Notes: a model not told the origin generated them from the letters alone. DNA of 64,000 nt from an uncultured Lachnospiraceae bacterium (GCA_946624935.1 CAMOSN010000002.1:30786-94785); one strand, 5' to 3'. Counted from the first letter of the stretch, positions 10,307 through 28,874 are shown. Translations and numbers: made by a program.

Positions 10307-12094
10307 ATGAAACGCGGGAGAAACCGTAAACTGACAGCCGGGATGGTCCGTGTGATCGTGACCTTCTGGATGATTCCCTATATTGCAGTATCGTCCATCC
10401 TGTTCGCGGTATATAACCGCTACAGCCAGCAGCAGATCGGACATACGGTGTGCGCCAGCATGGAGAATGCTGGCCTGATTCTTGCGGAGAAGATCAGTGC
10501 CGTGATCGAAATGTCGCGGCAGGCTTCCTATGACGGTGTGATCAAGAGAAGCTACGAGCAATACCGTAAGGACGGGGATGAGAGCGCGATGCACCAGGAG
10601 GTGACGGATTATCTGAACCGGACGTATAAATACAGTAAAACGATCTCCAATACGATCCTGCTGTATAATGATCCGGTGAAGATGGAATACTATACCTATA
10701 GTAATGTTGCCGGGGCAACCTATGCCAGCATTGACGAATTCCGGACCAGAACCGCGCAGGCGGTGCGGATGGCTGCGAAAGATCTCGGGACCAGCACCCG
10801 TCTGACGGACATCGATGGGCATCTGTATGTGGTGCGGAATATCGTGCGGAGCAATTATGATCCGTTTGCAACGCTTGTAATGGAAGTCAATAAGGACCGC
10901 CTTTTTGAGAGTACGGACAATGTCATCTGGAATAAGAGCGGCATCGTTGTACTGGACGGAGCCTTGCTCCGGCGGATCCCGGAGGATCTGTCCGGCGCTG
11001 CGGGGGGAATCGAAGAGACGCTGAAATCCGGTATGGCTTCTGTCGCTCTGCCTCGGGAAGGAGAAACAGCAGCCTGGTATGACCGGAAAAAGATGCAGGC
11101 GCTGTGTGCTTTGAAAATCAACGGTCAGGTGATTTTCTTTGCAAGTGAACTGGACCGGACGCAGCTGGTGGGCAGTCATGCGGTTTTTCTTGCAGTATAT
11201 ATTGTGGCGTTTCTTCTGCTGATCCCATTGCTGATCGCAACCTTTTCCTACCTGTATAAGAATATCAATCAGCCGGTAGGGGCTTTGATGAAGGGATCGG
11301 AGAAGATCCGAAATGGAGAATACGGGTACAGGCTGGAAACTTTTGATAAGAATGAAGAGATGGGCCAGCTGGTAGATACGTTCAATCTTATGTCGTGCAG
11401 TCTGGAGGAATCCTTCCGGCGGATCTATGTGGAGGAGATCGCGGAACGCGACGCGACCCTTAAAGCGCTGCAGTCACAGATCAATCCGCATTTTCTGAAC
11501 AATACACTGGAGATCATCAACTGGAAAGCCAGACTTTCCGGAAACGAGGATGTCAGTGAGATGATCGGCGCACTCAGCGTTATGATGAACGCAACGCTCA
11601 ACCGCAGCAACGAAATGTTCATTCCGCTTTCGGAGGAGCTTTCCTACGTGGATGCGTATCTTTACATTATCCACGAGCGTTTTGGAAAGAAATTCCGTTT
11701 TACAGAGGAAATAGATGAATCCCTGCTGAATGTGAAGATCCCGAGGCTGATCATCCAGCCGATCGTCGAGAATGCGGTGGAGCACGGAGGGGATGCGTAC
11801 GGAAATATTGAGGGCAGGCTGAAGGCAGAGAGAAGAGACGGGGCGCTGGTGATCACGGTGGAGAATAACGGCGTGCTTTCCCCGGAGGACCGTAGAAAGA
11901 TCGATGCGCTGCTGGAGGACGACCGGCCCGGGGAGCGCGAAGATCTTGACCGGATGAGCATCGGGATTCGCAATGTAAATCTGAGACTGCATCTGATCTA
12001 CGGGGGTGACAGCGGTCTGCGGATTGAAAATGACGGATCCGGCCATACGGTCAGTACGCTGCAGATCCGAAATGAACAAAGGGATCACAAGTAA
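10307..12094 (+). CDS. sensor histidine kinase, YesM/LytS-type
   Basis: Two TM segments flank a sensor domain. HAMP is followed by His_kinase motif LQSQINPHFLNNTLEII and a HATPase C-terminus (QPIVENAVEHG). Paired with the AraC-type response regulator at 15506. Confidence 0.85.
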   Translation: MKRGRNRKLTAGMVRVIVTFWMIPYIAVSSILFAVYNRYSQQQIGHTVCASMENAGLILAEKISAVIEMSRQASYDGVIKRSYEQYRKDGDESAMHQEVTDYLNRTYKYSKTISNTILLYNDPVKMEYYTYSNVAGATYASIDEFRTRTAQAVRMAAKDLGTSTRLTDIDGHLYVVRNIVRSNYDPFATLVMEVNKDRLFESTDNVIWNKSGIVVLDGALLRRIPEDLSGAAGGIEETLKSGMASVALPREGETAAWYDRKKMQALCALKINGQVIFFASELDRTQLVGSHAVFLAVYIVAFLLLIPLLIATFSYLYKNINQPVGALMKGSEKIRNGEYGYRLETFDKNEEMGQLVDTFNLMSCSLEESFRRIYVEEIAERDATLKALQSQINPHFLNNTLEIINWKARLSGNEDVSEMIGALSVMMNATLNRSNEMFIPLSEELSYVDAYLYIIHERFGKKFRFTEEIDESLLNVKIPRLIIQPIVENAVEHGGDAYGNIEGRLKAERRDGALVITVENNGVLSPEDRRKIDALLEDDRPGEREDLDRMSIGIRNVNLRLHLIYGGDSGLRIENDGSGHTVSTLQIRNEQRDHK

Positions 12095-16458: not shown

Positions 16459-16728
16459 ATGGCAAAGAAATCTGATACAGGTATTTCAGGCAAAAAAACG
16501 ACAGCAGTATCCAAAGAGGTGGAGCCGGATATCGTGAAGGCAGCAGAACCATCGGAGCTGTCTGTTTCCATACAGTCGGTGATGGGCGGGAGCATCAGTG
16601 TGGAAGAGATTATTGCCCGCGTGCATGCCGCGGCCCCGGATGCGACGGAGATCTATGTGAAGTCGGAAGAAAATAAGGCATATTATGTCGGAAAGAAAAA
16701 CCGGGGCTTTGTCGTTTTGTGGGAATAA
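16459..16728 (+). CDS. hypothetical small protein
   Basis: Charged, low-complexity N-terminus followed by a conserved-looking C-terminus (IYVKSEENKAYYVGKKNRGFVVLWE). Start is uncertain (16423 or 16459). Confidence 0.35.
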   Translation: MAKKSDTGISGKKTTAVSKEVEPDIVKAAEPSELSVSIQSVMGGSISVEEIIARVHAAAPDATEIYVKSEENKAYYVGKKNRGFVVLWE

Positions 16729-16739
16729 AAGCCTGCGCT

Positions 16740-17405
16740 TTATGGATGATGGACTACTGGCATTTCATTTTTATCGATCATCATTTCTGTCAGCGCCAGG
16801 GCCGCAATATCCTTTACTTCTTCTGCAGGGGTTGCAGGATTGATCCAATGATCGATCGAACCTGCCGGCAGAATGAGCGGCATTCTGTCATGAATTCTGG
16901 CAAGCTCACCGGATGGCTGCCTTGTGAGAATCGTAAAAAAGGGGAATCCGTTTTCGATTCGATATAAACCGGCCAGCCATGTAACGGTGGCTCCTTCGGG
17001 TTGAATCGTATATTTGCTGCCGATTTTCCGGGTACCGTCGGGACAGGAAAGGTGTTCCCATTCATAATACCAGGAGGCAGGGATAATGCAGCGGCGGCGC
17101 TGCCAGCATTCACGGAAGGTTGGCTTGTCTGCAGCAGTTTCAGAGCGGGCATTGATCAGGGGCTGGGAACGTTTGGTATGATCGCGCTCTGCCTGGCGGA
17201 AACCCCAGATCATCGGGAAAACGGAACGCTGTCCTTTGCTGCTTGAAGCGATCACCGGTGCGATATCCGTGGGCTTTACTTCCCCTTCGCAGACCACCGG
17301 CCGTCCCAGCTGATGGACCATTTTCCCCGCAAGGGGAGAACGCCGGGCGGCTTCAATGATGGGACGCAGCTCGGGAGACAATTCTACATAATATCTTGAG
17401 CACAT
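16740..17405 (-). CDS. SOS response-associated peptidase (SRAP/YedK family)
   Basis: Starts MCSRYY, with the catalytic Cys2 right after Met. INARSET and IHDRMPLIL motifs are present. The ORF-track TTG start (17429) actually contains the GGAG RBS for ATG 17405. Confidence 0.85.
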   Translation of the reverse strand: MCSRYYVELSPELRPIIEAARRSPLAGKMVHQLGRPVVCEGEVKPTDIAPVIASSSKGQRSVFPMIWGFRQAERDHTKRSQPLINARSETAADKPTFRECWQRRRCIIPASWYYEWEHLSCPDGTRKIGSKYTIQPEGATVTWLAGLYRIENGFPFFTILTRQPSGELARIHDRMPLILPAGSIDHWINPATPAEEVKDIAALALTEMMIDKNEMPVVHHP

Positions 17406-17452
17406 CGTAAGACATCTCCTTTCTGTCAAATGGAACCGGGGGCCTGTCCGGA

Positions 17453-18916
17453 TCAGCGCTTATGGCCGCCGATCTGGCCATTTCGCTCAATGGTTGTGGC
17501 TCCTTCCAGCAGATTGAAGCCCTTTACTATGGAACTGGCGCCATATTTTTTGCGCACTGCGAGCATCGCACTCTGGATTTGTCGTTCCTTCTCCAGTGCA
17601 CCGTAGTCGGTAAACAGATTCAGCTGAAAGGACTGATTATCGGTTATCGTACGATCGGCATTGACTCCGATTCGTCGGTACAGCAGACGATGGTCGGTTT
17701 TTTTGTCAAACTGCTCGAGAAGGGCAGCGGTAACGGCCTTTACGGAATTGGTTTTTTCCGGGAGGCGGACCGTTCCGTTACTGTGCTTCGGGTGAAGCCG
17801 CCCATAAAAATCCACCACCAGGGGGCCGTCATAACCGGGGCACTCCTCCAGTGATTTATAATCGTAGCTGACCCACCAGGTAAATACCCTGGAGATCAGA
17901 TTTTTGGAAAACAGATCGGCGCAAAGCACATCGATCATTTCCTGGAATATAATTCTTGCCTCCGCGTATTTATATGGCCGGGGAAGGACCTGTCCGTTTG
18001 AAAGACTGTGCCCTGTCGGACGGTAACGCTTGATGTCCGCCATGGTGACAGGCTCGATGCCCCAGGCATGGTCGATCAGGATCTCTGCGTCGATTCCGAA
18101 GGTTTTATAAAAAAACTCCTCGTCCCAGATGCTCCGGTTCGCGATCTCACCCATGGTAAAGAGACAGTTTTTCTGCAGACGCAGGGCTTTCCCGGGACCA
18201 AGCTGCCAGAAGTCCGTGAGAGGCGTGTGGTCCCAGAGGAGAAAGCAGTAGGACTGTTCATTGAGCTCGGCAATACGCACTCCATCCCGGTCAGCGGGTC
18301 TTTTCTTTGCAACGATATCCATGGCAACCTTGGCCAGATACAGGTTGGTGCCGATCCCGACAGTGGCTGTAATTCCGGTGGCTTTCAGGACGTCACGGAT
18401 CATGGTCATTGCCATGACATGGGCCGGATGGACCCCCTGCTCTTTTGCTTTCTCCCGATAAAAGTGGAGATAGGACGTACAGTCCAGAAAAGATTCGTCC
18501 ACGGAATATACATGGATATCCTCCGGGGCAACATAGCGCAGCAGGATCGAGTAGATCCGGGCAGATACCCGTTCGTATTCTGCCATTCGTGGAACAGCCG
18601 TGTAGTAATAGACCTTCGTATGGTGCAGCAGCTCATAGTTGCGGATCGCCTGCTTTGCCTCGAAGAGTCTTGGCCGCGAGGGGACCCCGATCGCTTTTAA
18701 AGCCGGTGAGACAGCCAGGCAGATCGTCTGATCCGAACGGGATGCATCGGCCACAAGAAGATTCGCTTTCAGTGGATCAATTCCGCGGGCAACGCATTCG
18801 ACAGAAGCATAAAAGCTTTTCATGTCAATTGCGATATAGGTTCGTTTGGCGGGCTGGTCCAAATTTGCAGGATTATTCTTTGCATCCGGAGCCTTTCCAT
18901 TTAAATCGGAACGCAT
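17453..18916 (-). CDS. Y-family (translesion) DNA polymerase
   Basis: YIAIDMKSFYASVECV and YSVDESFLD catalytic motifs, then palm/thumb/little-finger length (487 aa). GGAG lies 9 nt upstream of ATG 18916. Confidence 0.9.
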   Translation of the reverse strand: MRSDLNGKAPDAKNNPANLDQPAKRTYIAIDMKSFYASVECVARGIDPLKANLLVADASRSDQTICLAVSPALKAIGVPSRPRLFEAKQAIRNYELLHHTKVYYYTAVPRMAEYERVSARIYSILLRYVAPEDIHVYSVDESFLDCTSYLHFYREKAKEQGVHPAHVMAMTMIRDVLKATGITATVGIGTNLYLAKVAMDIVAKKRPADRDGVRIAELNEQSYCFLLWDHTPLTDFWQLGPGKALRLQKNCLFTMGEIANRSIWDEEFFYKTFGIDAEILIDHAWGIEPVTMADIKRYRPTGHSLSNGQVLPRPYKYAEARIIFQEMIDVLCADLFSKNLISRVFTWWVSYDYKSLEECPGYDGPLVVDFYGRLHPKHSNGTVRLPEKTNSVKAVTAALLEQFDKKTDHRLLYRRIGVNADRTITDNQSFQLNLFTDYGALEKERQIQSAMLAVRKKYGASSIVKGFNLLEGATTIERNGQIGGHKR

Positions 18917-19098
18917 GGCGTATCACTCCATAGTCCCATTCGAATGTCTTCCTCAAGGATTTTCTGTATTCTCCGGTATTCCCGGATCTCTTCTACAGTG
19001 GCTTTGCGTATGGACCTGGCTCCGCAATCCGGACATGCGCCAGGTGAATGCGAATACTGAAAAAGATAACGACATTTTGGGCAGGCATAGGTTTTCAT
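18901..19098 (-). CDS. small Zn-ribbon protein (65 aa), first gene of the SOS operon
   Basis: MKTYACPKCRYLFQYSHSPGACPDCGARS has CxxC-N13-CxxC spacing. AAGGAGG lies upstream of ATG 19098. The stop overlaps the polymerase start by 16 nt. Confidence 0.55.
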   Translation of the reverse strand: MKTYACPKCRYLFQYSHSPGACPDCGARSIRKATVEEIREYRRIQKILEEDIRMGLWSDTPCVPI

Positions 19099-19136
19099 AA
19101 GCAGCCTCCTTTTCATCATAAAGAGGACCAGGGAAT

Positions 19137-19150
19137 CGAACGCATGTTCG
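19137..19150. promoter_or_regulatory. LexA operator (Cheo/SOS box)
   Basis: CGAACGCATGTTCG is a perfect palindromic match to the Firmicute GAAC-N4-GTTC LexA box. It lies 39 nt upstream of the Zn-ribbon start codon and just downstream of the predicted -10. Confidence 0.7.
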
Positions 19151-19164
19151 AATGTTTTAAACAT

Positions 19165-19193
19165 ATACTACTCTGCGAAGTTCATTTTGTCAA
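19165..19193 (-). promoter_or_regulatory. sigma-A-type promoter of the Zn-ribbon/Y-pol/SRAP operon
   Basis: Minus-strand TTGACA (19193-19188), a 17-nt spacer, then TAGTAT (19170-19165). Confidence 0.5.
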
Positions 19194-19222
19194 CTGCTAT
19201 TCTCGGTTGCAGATGAAACTTC
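19177..19222. promoter_or_regulatory. imperfect inverted repeat bracketing both divergent -35 regions (candidate operator)
   Basis: GAAGTTCAT (19177-19185) and ATGAAACTTC (19213-19222) are reverse complements apart from one extra A. Confidence 0.3.
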
Positions 19223-19228
19223 TTTTTG

Positions 19229-19237
19229 TGGTATAAT
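19229..19237 (+). promoter_or_regulatory. extended -10 promoter element for the WYL gene pair
   Basis: TGGTATAAT lies 40 nt upstream of GTG 19277. The nearest -35-like TTGCAG sits at a 19-nt spacing. Confidence 0.4.
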
Positions 19238-19276
19238 AAATGCATCTTCAATCGTGACGGGGAGGAATGATCATCT

Positions 19277-20500
19277 GTGGCCTACAGCGAACTGATCAAG
19301 AATTTCAACCGGATCCGGGCTTATCTGCGCGCGTTCTATGTGCAGGGATTTCGGCATCGGGACGAATTTACGCAGAAGAGTCTTCGAAGCTATGACAACG
19401 AAAGACGCCGCGTGGAGAGCTGGCTCGGAGATTATATGTCCTTTGGTCAGGACGAAGACGGACGGCGTATCTTTCTCTCCGTGGACAGCAGGAGCATACC
19501 GGAGAATCCTCTGTACAGAGCATTTCGAACCAGGACCTTTACAGACCGGAGCATCATGCTGCATTTTCATATTCTGGATCTTTTAAAGGTGACCGGTGGT
19601 CTTTCCATCACAGGAATGATGGACGAACTGACCGATCGGCTTTCGCAATTTGAGCCCGGAGATCTCCCGGATGAATCGACCGTTCGAAAAAAACTCAGAG
19701 AGTATGGTTCTCTTGGCCTGATTCGTATGGAAAAGCAGGGGCGGGAAACGGTTTACAGGCTCAGTGAGGATCACATGGCGCTGCCTTCCTGGGTGGAAGC
19801 TGTCGCTTACTTTTCGGAGAGTGCTCCTCTGGGAGTGATCGGTTCCTTTATTCAGAACCAGCTTCCCGATCATTTTGAGAAATTCCGATTTAAGCATCAT
19901 TATATTCTAAATGCTCTGGACAGTGAGATCCTGTATGCATTATTTCAGTCAATCGGAGAAAAGCGCCTGATTACGATAACGATTCGTCGTCAGGCAATCC
20001 ATGTGCTGCCGCTGAAAATCTATATCGGCACACAGACCGGCCGGCAATATCTGCTGGCCTGGTCACCGTGGAAGAAAAGCTTCAGCTTTTACCGGGCAGA
20101 TCTGATCGATAAGGTAAAATCAGATTGCCTGCAAACCGTTCCCGAGGATCTGGCCAACCGCCTGGACGCGTTCTGCGCGCATACATGGGGTGTTTCAGGA
20201 GGGGAAAGTGAAGACAGGGAACATATCGAAATGACTGTTTTTGCAGGATCGGATGAGTGCTTTATTGTGGAAAGGCTCGAGCGTGAAAAGCGGTGCGGAA
20301 CGGTCAGCCGGGTGGATGATACCCACTGGAGGTTCAGCGCAGACGTATATGATGCGCTTGAAATGCTGCCATGGCTGCGGACATTTATCGGAAGAGTGAC
20401 ACAGCTGCAATGCAGTAATGAAGCGGTCGTGGCCCGTTTCCGGGAGGATGTAGCGGAAATGGCAATGATGTATGGAGGGGTGCGTGATGCTGTTCCATGA
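19277..20500 (+). CDS. HTH-WYL-WCX domain transcriptional regulator (PafB/PafC-like), long subunit
   Basis: wHTH-like ESTVRKKLREYGSLGLIRMEKQGRETVYRL. WYL-type core HVLPLKIYIGTQTGRQYLLAWSPWKKSFSFYRADLIDKV. C-terminal extension ends MLPWLRTFIGRVTQLQCSNEAVVARF. GTG start with GGAGGA RBS. Confidence 0.65.
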   Translation: MAYSELIKNFNRIRAYLRAFYVQGFRHRDEFTQKSLRSYDNERRRVESWLGDYMSFGQDEDGRRIFLSVDSRSIPENPLYRAFRTRTFTDRSIMLHFHILDLLKVTGGLSITGMMDELTDRLSQFEPGDLPDESTVRKKLREYGSLGLIRMEKQGRETVYRLSEDHMALPSWVEAVAYFSESAPLGVIGSFIQNQLPDHFEKFRFKHHYILNALDSEILYALFQSIGEKRLITITIRRQAIHVLPLKIYIGTQTGRQYLLAWSPWKKSFSFYRADLIDKVKSDCLQTVPEDLANRLDAFCAHTWGVSGGESEDREHIEMTVFAGSDECFIVERLEREKRCGTVSRVDDTHWRFSADVYDALEMLPWLRTFIGRVTQLQCSNEAVVARFREDVAEMAMMYGGVRDAVP

Positions 20501-21395
20501 AATGTACGGAAGTTATTTCCAAGCTGCAGATGCCATCCTGAAAGAAGCAGTGCGCGGAACGCTGACTGGAAAAGAAATGAATGTGCTTGTACAAAGGTAT
20601 GCTTTCGGAGAAAGCCTCCTTACGATTCCGGAGGGAATGGCCGGAGAAAAATGGAAGCTGCTTCACAGGGATTTCACGACGCCTCTGGAGGAGGTACCGG
20701 ATATGCCGTTGACGATCCTGGAGAAGCGCTGGATGAAAGCGCTTCTCCAGGATCCGAGGATCAGACTGTTCGAGCCGGATTTCACAGGTCTGGAGGATGT
20801 GGAACCCCTTTTCACACCGGACATGGTTGTCTATTATGACCGGTATGCGAATGGAGATGCCTATGAGGACCCCGCTTATATCCGATATTTCCGTACAATC
20901 TGTCAGGCTTTGCGGGAAAGCCGTGATCTGCGCATAGGGTTTGAGACAAAGGACAAAACACAACCAGTATTGTCCCTGACACCTTACTACCTGGAATACT
21001 CGGAAAAGGATGACCGCTTTCGGCTGATCGCCTCCGGAAATGGGAAACGCTGGCTGATTAATCTGTCACGGATCATTTTCTGTGAGATCGCCGGCGGGAG
21101 TGAACTCAGAGCGCTTCCCCCGGCATCCATAGATATGGTCACGTTCGAACTGGAGGACCGCCGCAATGCTCTGGAGCGGGTACTATTACATTTTTCCCAT
21201 CTGGAAAAGGAAACGAAGCGCCTGGATGATACACATTATCGTGTGACGCTCAAGTATGACCGGGCAGACCGTACGGAAATGGTGATCCGAATCCTGTCCT
21301 TTGGCCCGGTCATTAAGGTGATTGCGCCTGAGTTTTTTGTCGGGCTTATCCGGGAGCGGATCGAAAAGCAGCTTCGGATATCAGCACCGGAATAA
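20487..21395 (+). CDS. WYL-WCX domain protein, short subunit (no obvious N-terminal HTH)
   Basis: LSLTPYYLEYSEKDDRFRLIASGNGKRWLINLSRIIFCEI is WYL-like. The C-terminus YRVTLKYDRADRTEMVIRILSFGPVIKVIAPEFF is WCX-like. ATG 20487 overlaps the upstream stop (20498-20500). Confidence 0.6.
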   Translation: MLFHEMYGSYFQAADAILKEAVRGTLTGKEMNVLVQRYAFGESLLTIPEGMAGEKWKLLHRDFTTPLEEVPDMPLTILEKRWMKALLQDPRIRLFEPDFTGLEDVEPLFTPDMVVYYDRYANGDAYEDPAYIRYFRTICQALRESRDLRIGFETKDKTQPVLSLTPYYLEYSEKDDRFRLIASGNGKRWLINLSRIIFCEIAGGSELRALPPASIDMVTFELEDRRNALERVLLHFSHLEKETKRLDDTHYRVTLKYDRADRTEMVIRILSFGPVIKVIAPEFFVGLIRERIEKQLRISAPE

Positions 21396-21417
21396 CAATG
21401 GCAAGTGCTAAAATGGT

Positions 21418-23794
<2,377 letters not shown>

Positions 23795-27277: not shown

Positions 27278-27449
27278 GAGACCCCCATAATGCATAAAAA
27301 ATGAAACGATATCTAAGGATATCTTGGTCAATAACATCATGAAAAGAAACGATAATATAAATTATAAGAACAAAAGTATAACAATGCAAGAGAGAAAAGA
27401 GGTAAAATAAAAAATAATACGATACTATTAATGAAGGAGGGGTCCTGAA

Positions 27450-28874
27450 ATGATACAATTTGGCACTGGCGGCTGGCGGGCGATTATCGGTGACGAATAT
27501 ACGAAAGCAAATTTAAGACTCCTGGCGGCTGCCTTGGCAGAAAAGATGGTTGCAGAACATGCGACGGAGCATGGAATCGTGATCGGATACGACCGTCGAT
27601 TCCTGTCCAAGGAATCCATGCAGTGGATGGCTGAGGTGTTTGCCGCACAAAACATTAAAGCGTATCTGATCAATAAGTCCTGCCCGACTCCGTTGGCGAT
27701 GTTCTACAGCAAGGAACATGATATGCCGTATGGAATGATGGTAACTGCCAGTCACAACCCTGCTATATATAATGGTGTAAAGCTATTCACAAAAGGGGGC
27801 CGGGATGCTGATATTACTGTGACCCAGGATATTGAACGTATTGCTGCACGTATTGAGGCATCAGGAGAGCTAATCAAGTCGATTCCGTACATCGATGCCA
27901 GAGAGCAGGGACTGATTGAAGAGATCTATCCGATCGATGATTATATTGACAGTATTCTGAATGAGGTCAATACGAAAGCAATTCGGGGGGCGAGATTGAA
28001 GGTCGTTCTGGATCCGATGTATGGTGTGAGCGAAACAGCAATCAAGACGATCCTGATTACCGCCCGCTGTGAAGTGGAAACGATTCATGGGCGTCATGAT
28101 ACCCTTTTCGGAGGGCATCTGCCGGCACCCAGCGAGGAATGGATGCGGGAACTGATGACGACTGTGATAGAAGGAAACTATGACATCGGGATCGCAACGG
28201 ACGGAGACGCCGACCGCATCGGTGTAATCGATAATAATGGAAGATATTTATCTCCGAATGATCTCCTGGTTGTGCTTTACTATTACCTGGTAGAGTACAA
28301 ACACAAACACGGACCGGCTGTCCGAAATCTGTGCACCACGCATAAACTGGATCGCCTGGCAGAGATGTTCGGGGAAAAATGTTATGAAGTACCGGTTGGT
28401 TTTAAACACATTTCCTCAAAGATGCTGGAAACAAATGCATTGTTGGGCGGCGAATCCTCAGGCGGTCTGGCGGTCAGGGGGCACATTCACGGGAAAGACG
28501 GTGTCTATGTGGCGGCGCTTCTTGTAGAAATGCTGGCGGTGACCGGGAAAAAAATGTCCGAGATATTTGATGAAATTGCAGCGAAAGTCGGAAAAACGGC
28601 TTTTGTTGAGAACAATTATCGGTTCCGCCCGGAGGATCGGGAACGTTTTCTTCAAATGATTATGGAAGAAAAACAGGTACCAGAGCTACCGTTTCGAATT
28701 GAGAAGATTAGCTATATGGACGGATGTAAGGTTTTTTTTGAGAACGGGGGCTGGGTATCCATACGGTTCTCGGGAACAGAACCACTGCTCCGGGTCTTCT
28801 GTGAGATGCCTGAAAAAGAAATGGCAGATCAGGTCTGTGTACTCTATCAGGCGTTTCTCGGTTTAAAGGATTAA
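27450..28874 (+). CDS. alpha-D-phosphohexomutase family protein (phosphogluco/manno/acetylglucosamine mutase-like)
   Basis: Active-site loop TASHNPAIYNGVKLF, metal loop ATDGDADR and sugar loop GGESSGG. 474 aa. Confidence 0.85.
   Translation: MIQFGTGGWRAIIGDEYTKANLRLLAAALAEKMVAEHATEHGIVIGYDRRFLSKESMQWMAEVFAAQNIKAYLINKSCPTPLAMFYSKEHDMPYGMMVTASHNPAIYNGVKLFTKGGRDADITVTQDIERIAARIEASGELIKSIPYIDAREQGLIEEIYPIDDYIDSILNEVNTKAIRGARLKVVLDPMYGVSETAIKTILITARCEVETIHGRHDTLFGGHLPAPSEEWMRELMTTVIEGNYDIGIATDGDADRIGVIDNNGRYLSPNDLLVVLYYYLVEYKHKHGPAVRNLCTTHKLDRLAEMFGEKCYEVPVGFKHISSKMLETNALLGGESSGGLAVRGHIHGKDGVYVAALLVEMLAVTGKKMSEIFDEIAAKVGKTAFVENNYRFRPEDRERFLQMIMEEKQVPELPFRIEKISYMDGCKVFFENGGWVSIRFSGTEPLLRVFCEMPEKEMADQVCVLYQAFLGLKD

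Follow-up and report, generated by a model that had tools for sequence, protein, structure and literature searches.

Does a pair of WYL-domain proteins govern the DNA-damage-tolerance operon that it faces across a shared control region, or have two unrelated modules come to lie side by side? The question is raised by a 64,000-nucleotide stretch of DNA from an uncultured Lachnospiraceae bacterium (GCA_946624935.1 CAMOSN010000002.1:30786-94785), hereafter the window. Positions 16740-19098 hold three closely packed minus-strand genes, which encode a Zn-ribbon protein, a Y-family DNA polymerase (Y-pol) and an SRAP peptidase, and positions 19277-21395 hold two overlapping plus-strand genes, here called WYLA and WYLB. 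A preliminary description of the locus, made from the sequence, had proposed that LexA and a heteromeric WYL sensor jointly control the minus-strand operon. Our analysis points instead, with a probability of roughly 0.65, to two functionally independent modules that are neighbours by chance, the WYL pair being tied to an RNA-repair module that is absent from the window.

Adjacency of the WYL pair and the polymerase operon is not conserved

We examined the adjacency from both sides. For the pair, one genome was taken per species, which gave 80 loci with WYLA relatives (48–72% identity) in Lachnospiraceae, Oscillospiraceae, Christensenellaceae, Anaerovoracaceae, Succinivibrionaceae, Flexilinea and Phascolarctobacterium; for the polymerase, we scanned 80 metagenomic loci with Y-pol relatives (70–76% identity). 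Neither direction revealed conserved co-occurrence. Y-pol or SRAP was found within 8 kb of the WYL pair in 3/80 loci, none of them in the divergent arrangement of the window: one locus (L027) has SRAP downstream of the RNA ligase gene rtcB, and two have Y-pol within 6 kb. The Zn-ribbon open reading frame (ORF) was near the pair in 0/80 loci, and WYLA or WYLB occurred within 5 kb of the Y-pol relatives in 0/80. The preliminary description had itself named a lack of synteny in related genomes as evidence against a shared circuit, and this is what both scans returned. A public contig 99% identical to the window has the same gene arrangement, while the three closest non-identical WYLA relatives (71–73%) adjoin RtcB and/or DUF2828, and not the IMS polymerase domain or SRAP.

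Under dual control, LexA would repress, and a WYL heteromer sensing single-stranded DNA (ssDNA) would activate or de-repress, the Zn-ribbon/Y-pol/SRAP operon from the shared 178 bp. The predicted divergent promoters do stand back to back with ~14 nt between them, a layout typical of a regulator and its target, and PafBC, DriD and SiwR govern DNA-damage genes that are often adjacent to them (PMC6789036, PMC10693628); L027 and the two loci with a nearby Y-pol also speak for such a link. Set against these are the missing synteny in both directions, the RtcB and DUF2828 neighbours of the pair's closest relatives, and the Firmicute LexA site (Cheo box), no similar copy of which turned up in the 200 nt preceding WYLA in the relatives (0/78). 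We regard dual control as distinctly improbable, and because the adjacency is not conserved, LexA-plus-WYL control of translesion synthesis in Clostridia is not worth pursuing from this locus.

In L027, the SRAP gene (L027:4393-4959) comes after WYLA-WYLB-RtcB in the same orientation, and its product is 43% identical to the SRAP protein of the window. It is the only hint of an SRAP link to the WYL pair (1/80 loci).

The WYL pair is associated with an RNA-repair module

ORF clustering in the 80 pair loci, with identification by Pfam, gave two dominant neighbour families, a DUF2828+DUF7788 protein of ~490 amino acids (aa) and RtcB, and a less frequent third, the nucleotidyltransferase RlaP. By tblastn, DUF2828 and/or RtcB lay within 8 kb of the pair in 60/80 loci; the loci without either include several short contigs of 3–5 kb. 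The partners either follow the pair in the same orientation or lie upstream of it and diverge. Thus RtcB begins 36 nt after WYLB in L162, and the pair is divergent from a DUF2828/RtcB operon in Oscillospiraceae.

Within the window, tblastn found no RtcB, DUF2828 or RlaP. A convergent GH51 arabinofuranosidase gene ends 22 nt from the WYLB stop codon, and the pair's usual downstream genes are therefore missing there.

A conserved element replaces the −35 hexamer at the partner promoters

Intergenic DNA of the divergent pair loci contains a near-invariant, non-palindromic element, TCGCAAC-T7-CCGGGAA (profile gtTCGCAACTTTTTTtCCGgGAa), followed 18 nt downstream by TAnnnT, often with an upstream TG (for example in L052:7600-8000, L044:7505-8000, L004:10680-10940 and L011:10190-10450). 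It spans approximately −51 to −31 and takes the place of the −35 hexamer. The element scored above 20 bits in 71/80 pair loci, across several phyla, and 622 kb of control loci yielded 0 matches above 15 bits. Most instances (75/90) have DUF2828, RtcB or a structured RNA (recognized by its Y-box or T-arm) no more than 2 kb further along the same strand. Visual inspection of the DNA preceding WYLA in the relatives showed no shared operator; the conserved element belongs to the partner operon's promoter.

The element is a candidate operator of the WYL pair, and its non-palindromic form suits a regulator whose DNA-binding unit is single or asymmetric. At PafBC and SiwR promoters, the activator likewise binds in place of the −35 (PMC6789036, PMC10693628), SiwR occupying the −26 region (PMC10693628). 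The best matches in the window reach 9.4–9.7 bits, the level of shuffled sequence, and the best within 19050-19300 scores −10 bits; the element that accompanies the pair elsewhere is not in the 178-bp control region, which again counts against dual control. Where pairs have no such element, their neighbours are miscellaneous transporters and regulators, without a DNA-repair theme.

Related loci encode Y-RNA-like and tRNA-like transcripts

About half of the element promoters start an RNA of the form 5'-AAAAGCRC-NN-ACAGCAA...NN-GYGCTTTGTA, the insert being a plain hairpin or a tRNA-like domain. The Y-like RNAs share a closing stem (AAAGCRCN/NGYGCTTT) and an invariant single-stranded 5' ACAGCA box (L004:10743-10860, L011:10249-10365, and L037:10218-10330 and 10530-10640). 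A permuted type, ordered as T-arm, closed acceptor-like hairpin and D-arm, has a 24-pair consensus in a 17-sequence alignment, with compensatory changes at 12 pairs. The Rfam model YrlA ("Y RNA-like") matched part of the core at 30 bits (E=2e-4), which is under its gathering score; at the gathering threshold, Rfam returned tRNA matches alone in the related loci. Together, these features look like a divergent class of Y RNA tied to DUF2828/DUF7788 instead of Ro60. A comparison of DUF2828/DUF7788 with the PDB gave no Ro60 match.

In other units the enclosed sequence is tRNA-like, and Rfam tRNA and ARAGORN call varied anticodons for it. The tRNA or tRNA-like genes include L004:10866-10940 and 11499-11571, L012:5289-5555, L047:10336-10410, L044:7720-7792, L053:7660-7734, L057:5935-6008 and L069:7539-7610. 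Leader tRNAs of the DUF2828/RtcB operon carry Asp, Glu, Phe, Met, Leu, Arg or Trp anticodons, and the Y-like stem surrounds some of them; a possible role is as anticodon-nuclease decoys or repair substrates. The window itself has no Rfam match and no Y-RNA 5' box.

WYLA and WYLB are predicted to adopt PafBC-like folds with an asymmetric HTH

The two plus-strand genes had been described as overlapping and as encoding WYL-like, WCX-like proteins with a helix-turn-helix (HTH) in the first alone, and structural models, PADLOC and the Pfam matches of relatives bear this out. WYLA (19277-20500; 407 aa) comprises a conserved N-terminal extension, a winged HTH (wHTH), a WYL domain and a WCX domain. 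WYLB (20487-21395; 302 aa) has an N-terminal domain lacking an HTH, followed by WYL and WCX. Its start at 20487 has GGAGG 8 nt upstream and agrees with the public 302-aa gene call, and an in-frame ATG is also present at 20472, which would give 307 aa; the overlap with WYLA is 14 nt or 29 nt, respectively.

Profile searches were less sensitive to these domains in the window than in its relatives. The hidden Markov model (HMM) matches expected for IMS and SRAP were obtained, as described below, while those expected for WYL and WCX fell below threshold in the window's own copies and emerged in related proteins. Pfam WYL scored 16.6 and 15.1 bits (cut-off, 21.8), and Pfam WCX (PF25583) matched WYLB at E=0.004, also below threshold. 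The PADLOC WYL model matched both proteins (1e-10 for WYLA, 1e-8 for WYLB), Pfam WYL (PF13280) was present in 14/28 WYLA relatives and 13/27 WYLB relatives, and Pfam WCX in 27/27 WYLB relatives. HMM searches of WYLA gave weak ArsR/SmtB and PaaX HTH matches, and HMMER sequence and profile searches of both proteins against the PDB yielded a weak ArsR/SmtB-type HTH in WYLA and nothing more, so a comparison of folds was needed.

The AlphaFold2 (AF2) model of WYLA contains a confident wHTH (residues ~90-165) and WYL+WCX (~215-400). Foldseek matched it to DriD (5e-11; C-domain template modelling [TM] score 0.68, 3.8 Å) and PafBC (3e-9), and the WYLB model (mean predicted local distance difference test [pLDDT] score, 77) to PafBC (4e-9) and DriD (2e-8); BrxR and CapW were among the matches of both, with E-values from 5e-11 to 1e-5 over the four regulators. 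The Sm-like beta-barrel of the WYL domain is thus identified in both proteins by fold, PADLOC and family-level Pfam matches, and the WCX domain in WYLB by Pfam in relatives and in WYLA by the superposition of its C-domain on that of DriD. In residues 1-130 of WYLB, neither the model nor HMM searches (E≤1) revealed an HTH; this part is helical or disordered, with residues 47-78 at low confidence. HTH-WYL-WCX transcription factors reportedly form class A in the scheme of Mueller et al. 2019. An hhalign comparison of the WYLA and WYLB family profiles was not significant because the alignments are shallow, with >60% identity throughout.

The N-terminal regions of WYLA (residues 1-90, 19277-19550) and WYLB (residues 1-130, 20487-20880) are among the most conserved parts of the two proteins, and their pLDDT is <50 in places in the single-chain models. 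The two regions may fold against each other, and may form an inter-subunit interface or a partner-binding surface.

WYLB follows WYLA in every locus (80/80), and the two ORFs overlap in 50/53 evaluable loci. Among the 150 best WYLB representatives at 50% identity, at least seven proteins of 685–799 aa appear to be WYLA-WYLB fusions with WYLB in the C-terminal half (P0294, P0321, P0334, P0337, P0350, P0353 and P0363). BLASTP verified two of them by matching the N-terminal half to WYLA (E=5e-74 and 1e-83); the other five are candidates by length. Arthrobacter has a natural PafB-PafC fusion, a parallel to these proteins. Because natural A-B fusions exist, a PafBC-like complex of WYLA and WYLB is supported, and the pair is most likely such a heteromer, with WYLA contributing the single HTH. 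The asymmetric PafBC-like layout first suspected at this locus, with one subunit devoid of a recognizable HTH, therefore holds at the level of the predicted folds. The family is large: 1,244 WYLB cluster representatives at 50% identity reach E≤1e-3, 354 of them E≤1e-30, and >6,000 clusters at 90% identity were scored.

These folds bear on two other readings of the pair. In one, the pair is not primarily a transcription factor but works, or binds RNA, within the RtcB/Y-RNA system, for instance by binding the Y-like RNAs with its Sm-like WYL domains, and another factor would read the element. The Cas13d accessory protein WYL1 binds ssRNA, the pair and RtcB/DUF2828 are often on the same strand with short gaps (36 nt in L162), the Y-like RNAs expose an invariant single-stranded ACAGCA box, and WYLB has no HTH. 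We nevertheless consider this unlikely: WYLA has a confident wHTH and an overall fold that matches DNA-binding activators, the element occupies the −35 position as at PafBC and SiwR promoters, the Oscillospiraceae pairs diverge from their operon in a classic regulator layout, and the pair persists in the window without the module.

The other reading, which assigns the pair to an anti-phage defence island as its BrxR/CapW-type regulator, draws on the PADLOC matches, which are to a CRISPR-associated WYL model, and on BrxR and CapW among the structural matches. PADLOC finds no defence proteins in the five genes, and we rejected the reading for this lack of defence genes; it is very improbable also in view of the carbohydrate-utilization genes that surround the pair in the window, the RNA-repair genes that are its conserved partners elsewhere, and its near absence from viral contigs. 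Scans of viral contigs found the WYL pair once and the polymerase twice, so neither has a clear phage origin.

The Zn-ribbon/Y-pol/SRAP operon has the architecture of a LexA-controlled unit

On the minus strand, the three genes that had been described as one unit were recovered in full. The SRAP gene (16740-17405) encodes a 221-aa YedK/HMCES-type abasic-site crosslinking peptidase (PF02586, E=5e-37). Its translation starts MCSRY, which leaves Cys2 at the N-terminus, and contains the INARSET (NARSE-T) and HDRMP motifs, so the Cys, Glu and His of the catalytic set are in place, as first noticed. The gene call is identical in the 99%-identical public contig. The Y-family (DinB/UmuC-like) translesion polymerase (17453-18916, minus strand; 487 aa) matches IMS (PF00817, E=1e-26), IMS_C (PF11799, E=1e-7) and the NCBIfam Pol IV model PRK03103 (4e-47). 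Catalytic IAIDMKSFYASVE and SVDESFLD motifs are visible in its translation (DMK..SFYASVE and VDES), giving an IMS catalytic core with acidic residues and a little-finger (IMS_C) domain. The third gene (18901-19098, minus strand) is a 65-aa ORF with two CxxC motifs and weak rubredoxin-like and Zn-ribbon HMM matches; it shares 16 nt with the start of the polymerase gene, to which it is predicted to be translationally coupled.

The region between the divergent units measures 178 bp (19099-19276), close to the ~180 bp given before. Its predicted sigma-A promoter for the operon (19165-19193, minus strand) reads TTGACA(19193-19188)-17-TAGTAT(19170-19165), agrees with the consensus at 10/12 positions and is the best such site in 16600-21600. 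The Cheo box that had been called perfect is indeed exact: CGAACGCATGTTCG at 19137-19150 is the sole match in the 64-kb window even when one mismatch is allowed, with an estimated chance expectation of ~0.06 exact matches per window. It has the CGAAC-N4-GTTCG form of Firmicute LexA regulons and adjoins the promoter on its downstream side, 14 nt away from the predicted −10 and at ~+8 to +21 of the predicted transcript, where a repressor would block transcription. The ribosome-binding site (RBS) of the Zn-ribbon ORF is AAAGGAGG (19105-19112, minus strand). For the WYL pair, we predict an extended −10 promoter (TGgTATAAT; 19229-19237, plus strand) ~40 nt upstream of the WYLA start, and similar extended −10 elements precede WYLA in related loci. 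The Cheo box is ~80 nt upstream of this extended −10 and is therefore positioned to affect the minus-strand unit only. Taken as sequence, the arrangement of promoter, box and RBS makes a convincing case for LexA control, and a damage-tolerance unit under LexA is a plausible description of these three genes.

A second palindrome, ATGTTT-T-AAACAT, occupies 19152-19164 in the minus-strand promoter, flanked by the −10 hexamer on one side and the Cheo box on the other.

LexA-controlled Y-polymerase operons, such as umuDC of E. coli and yqjX-yqjW and yolD-uvrX of B. subtilis, resemble the window operon in having a LexA box at the promoter and a small coupled accessory ORF upstream of the polymerase. 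They differ in the accessory protein, which is UmuD or YolD there and a Zn-ribbon protein here. Most close relatives of the window's Y-pol have no Cheo box. Many of these relatives instead sit behind ImmA/IrrE-like or S24 peptidase genes. A small ORF with two CxxC motifs is directly upstream in 47/71 Y-pol relatives (L082-L161). These ORFs fall into at least three unrelated-looking sequence types, and the window's type recurs in L147, where a homologue (49% identity) directly precedes the Y-pol relative. The pattern suggests a recurring Zn-ribbon accessory factor that would replace UmuD or YolD beside Y-family polymerases. SRAP lies downstream in about a third of the loci with Y-pol relatives (~29/80).

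Two independent modules probably account for the locus

SRAP proteins, which belong to the SOS neighbourhood from which the family takes its name, covalently shield abasic sites in ssDNA; Y-family polymerases bypass lesions, and LexA represses. Combined with the sequence, this knowledge gives a scheme for the first module in which LexA would occupy the Cheo box, immediately after the −10, and so keep the minus-strand genes off. DNA damage would then lead to joint production of the Zn-ribbon protein, the polymerase (for lesion bypass) and SRAP (for the shielding of abasic sites).

In the second module, a WYLA/WYLB heteromer would most likely bind TCGCAAC-T7-CCGGGAA and activate the RNA-repair promoter when its WYL domains capture damage-derived single-stranded nucleic acid, for example RNA or tRNA fragments. 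The pair would then be a functional analogue of RtcR. Since the window contains neither the element nor the RNAs nor RtcB, its pair would either have a trans target at another genomic locus or be an orphan. We conclude that the WYL pair probably activates, in the manner of RtcR, an RNA-repair operon that is unlinked or lost in the window. A fuller version, to which we would not quite give even odds, is that this is a widespread two-subunit WYL activator, with one HTH-less subunit and sometimes fused, that serves as the RtcR equivalent of a Firmicute RNA-repair island, reads an element in place of the −35 and is triggered by damaged RNA and not by ssDNA, the window copy being trans-acting or orphaned.

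Several points weigh against this account. The function given to the WYL pair comes by guilt by association. In about nine of the 80 related loci no element is near the pair, which may therefore act on other targets, and the element could be read by another factor. A trans target elsewhere in the genome is assumed, the search having covered the 64-kb window. To our knowledge, every characterized WYL regulator whose ligand has been identified senses ssDNA (DriD, PafBC, SiwR and CapW). For the first module, the Cheo box is found upstream of Y-pol relatives at the background rate (3/73 with ≤1 mismatch within 1.5 kb), with one well-placed Cheo-like box in L154 (CGAACATATGTTTG); because the box is not conserved there, LexA control would be specific to the window copy. 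Finally, the Salmonella RNA-repair operons are DNA-damage-inducible (PMC9879122), and the WYL pair may retain a thematic link to DNA damage.

Relation to known WYL regulators and RNA-repair systems

We know of no description of RtcR in Firmicutes. In E. coli and Salmonella (rtcBA and rsr-yrlBA-rtcBA), RtcR is a ligand-sensing activator beside a Y RNA and RtcB operon (PMC7790460, PMC4201824), and it is on this arrangement that the proposed analogy is built. Its CARF-AAA+-HTH architecture and sigma-54 dependence are unrelated to the WYL pair. The module of the related loci resembles Salmonella rsr-yrlBA-rtcBA (PMC4201824, PMC7790460), with DUF2828/DUF7788 and the WYL pair in the positions of Ro60/Rsr and RtcR.

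PafBC (Mycobacterium and Arthrobacter; PDB 6SJ9, 9FND) consists, like WYLA/WYLB, of two adjacent, co-transcribed WYL-WCX paralogues with natural fusions. Its structural matches to the two proteins have E=4e-9 to 1e-7, and HMMER against the PDB detected no sequence similarity. The RecA-NDp promoters of PafBC (PMC6789036) have a non-palindromic −35-region element beside a TAnnnT −10, as do the promoters associated with our pair. The differences are that PafB and PafC both carry an HTH, here present in WYLA alone; that both WYLA and WYLB have extra conserved N-terminal regions; and that the partners are RtcB, DUF2828 and RlaP instead of DNA-repair genes. Linkage to the pup-proteasome (pafA) or a DNA-repair regulon, a hallmark of PafBC, was not seen, no such genes being found in the window or the related loci.

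DriD (Caulobacter; PDB 8TP8, 7TZV) is the best structural match of WYLA and has its wHTH-WYL-WCX architecture; single-stranded nucleic acid triggers its activator function, as proposed for the pair. Unlike the two-gene pair, it is a single-gene homodimer that senses ssDNA and controls SOS-independent DNA-damage genes. SiwR, BrxR and CapW show the HTH-WYL(-WCX) fold too and control genes beside their own, but are one-gene homodimers whose targets are DinB/YfiT-like enzymes or phage-defence systems. The WYL pair is apparently an uncharacterized variant of these regulators. We found no description of its link to RtcB in the searchable literature, a scope that does not include the comparative RNA-repair survey of Burroughs & Aravind 2016.

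The more promising lead from this locus is thus a PafBC-like pair, present in abundant gut and rumen anaerobes, that a conserved promoter element ties to an RtcB/Y-RNA-like module. If the pair senses damaged RNA, WYL signalling would extend from ssDNA to RNA damage, and RNA repair in Firmicutes would gain a testable system of regulator, operator and ligand.

Genes surrounding the two modules

The surrounding genes of the window encode carbohydrate transporters, a two-component system and glycosidases, and the base composition of 16.7–21.4 kb shows no island signature. Serpins are uncommon in bacteria. The carbohydrate-utilization region contains a 400-aa serpin gene (PF00079; ~27430-28630, located from L081:18155-19357) that follows a LacI-type regulator.

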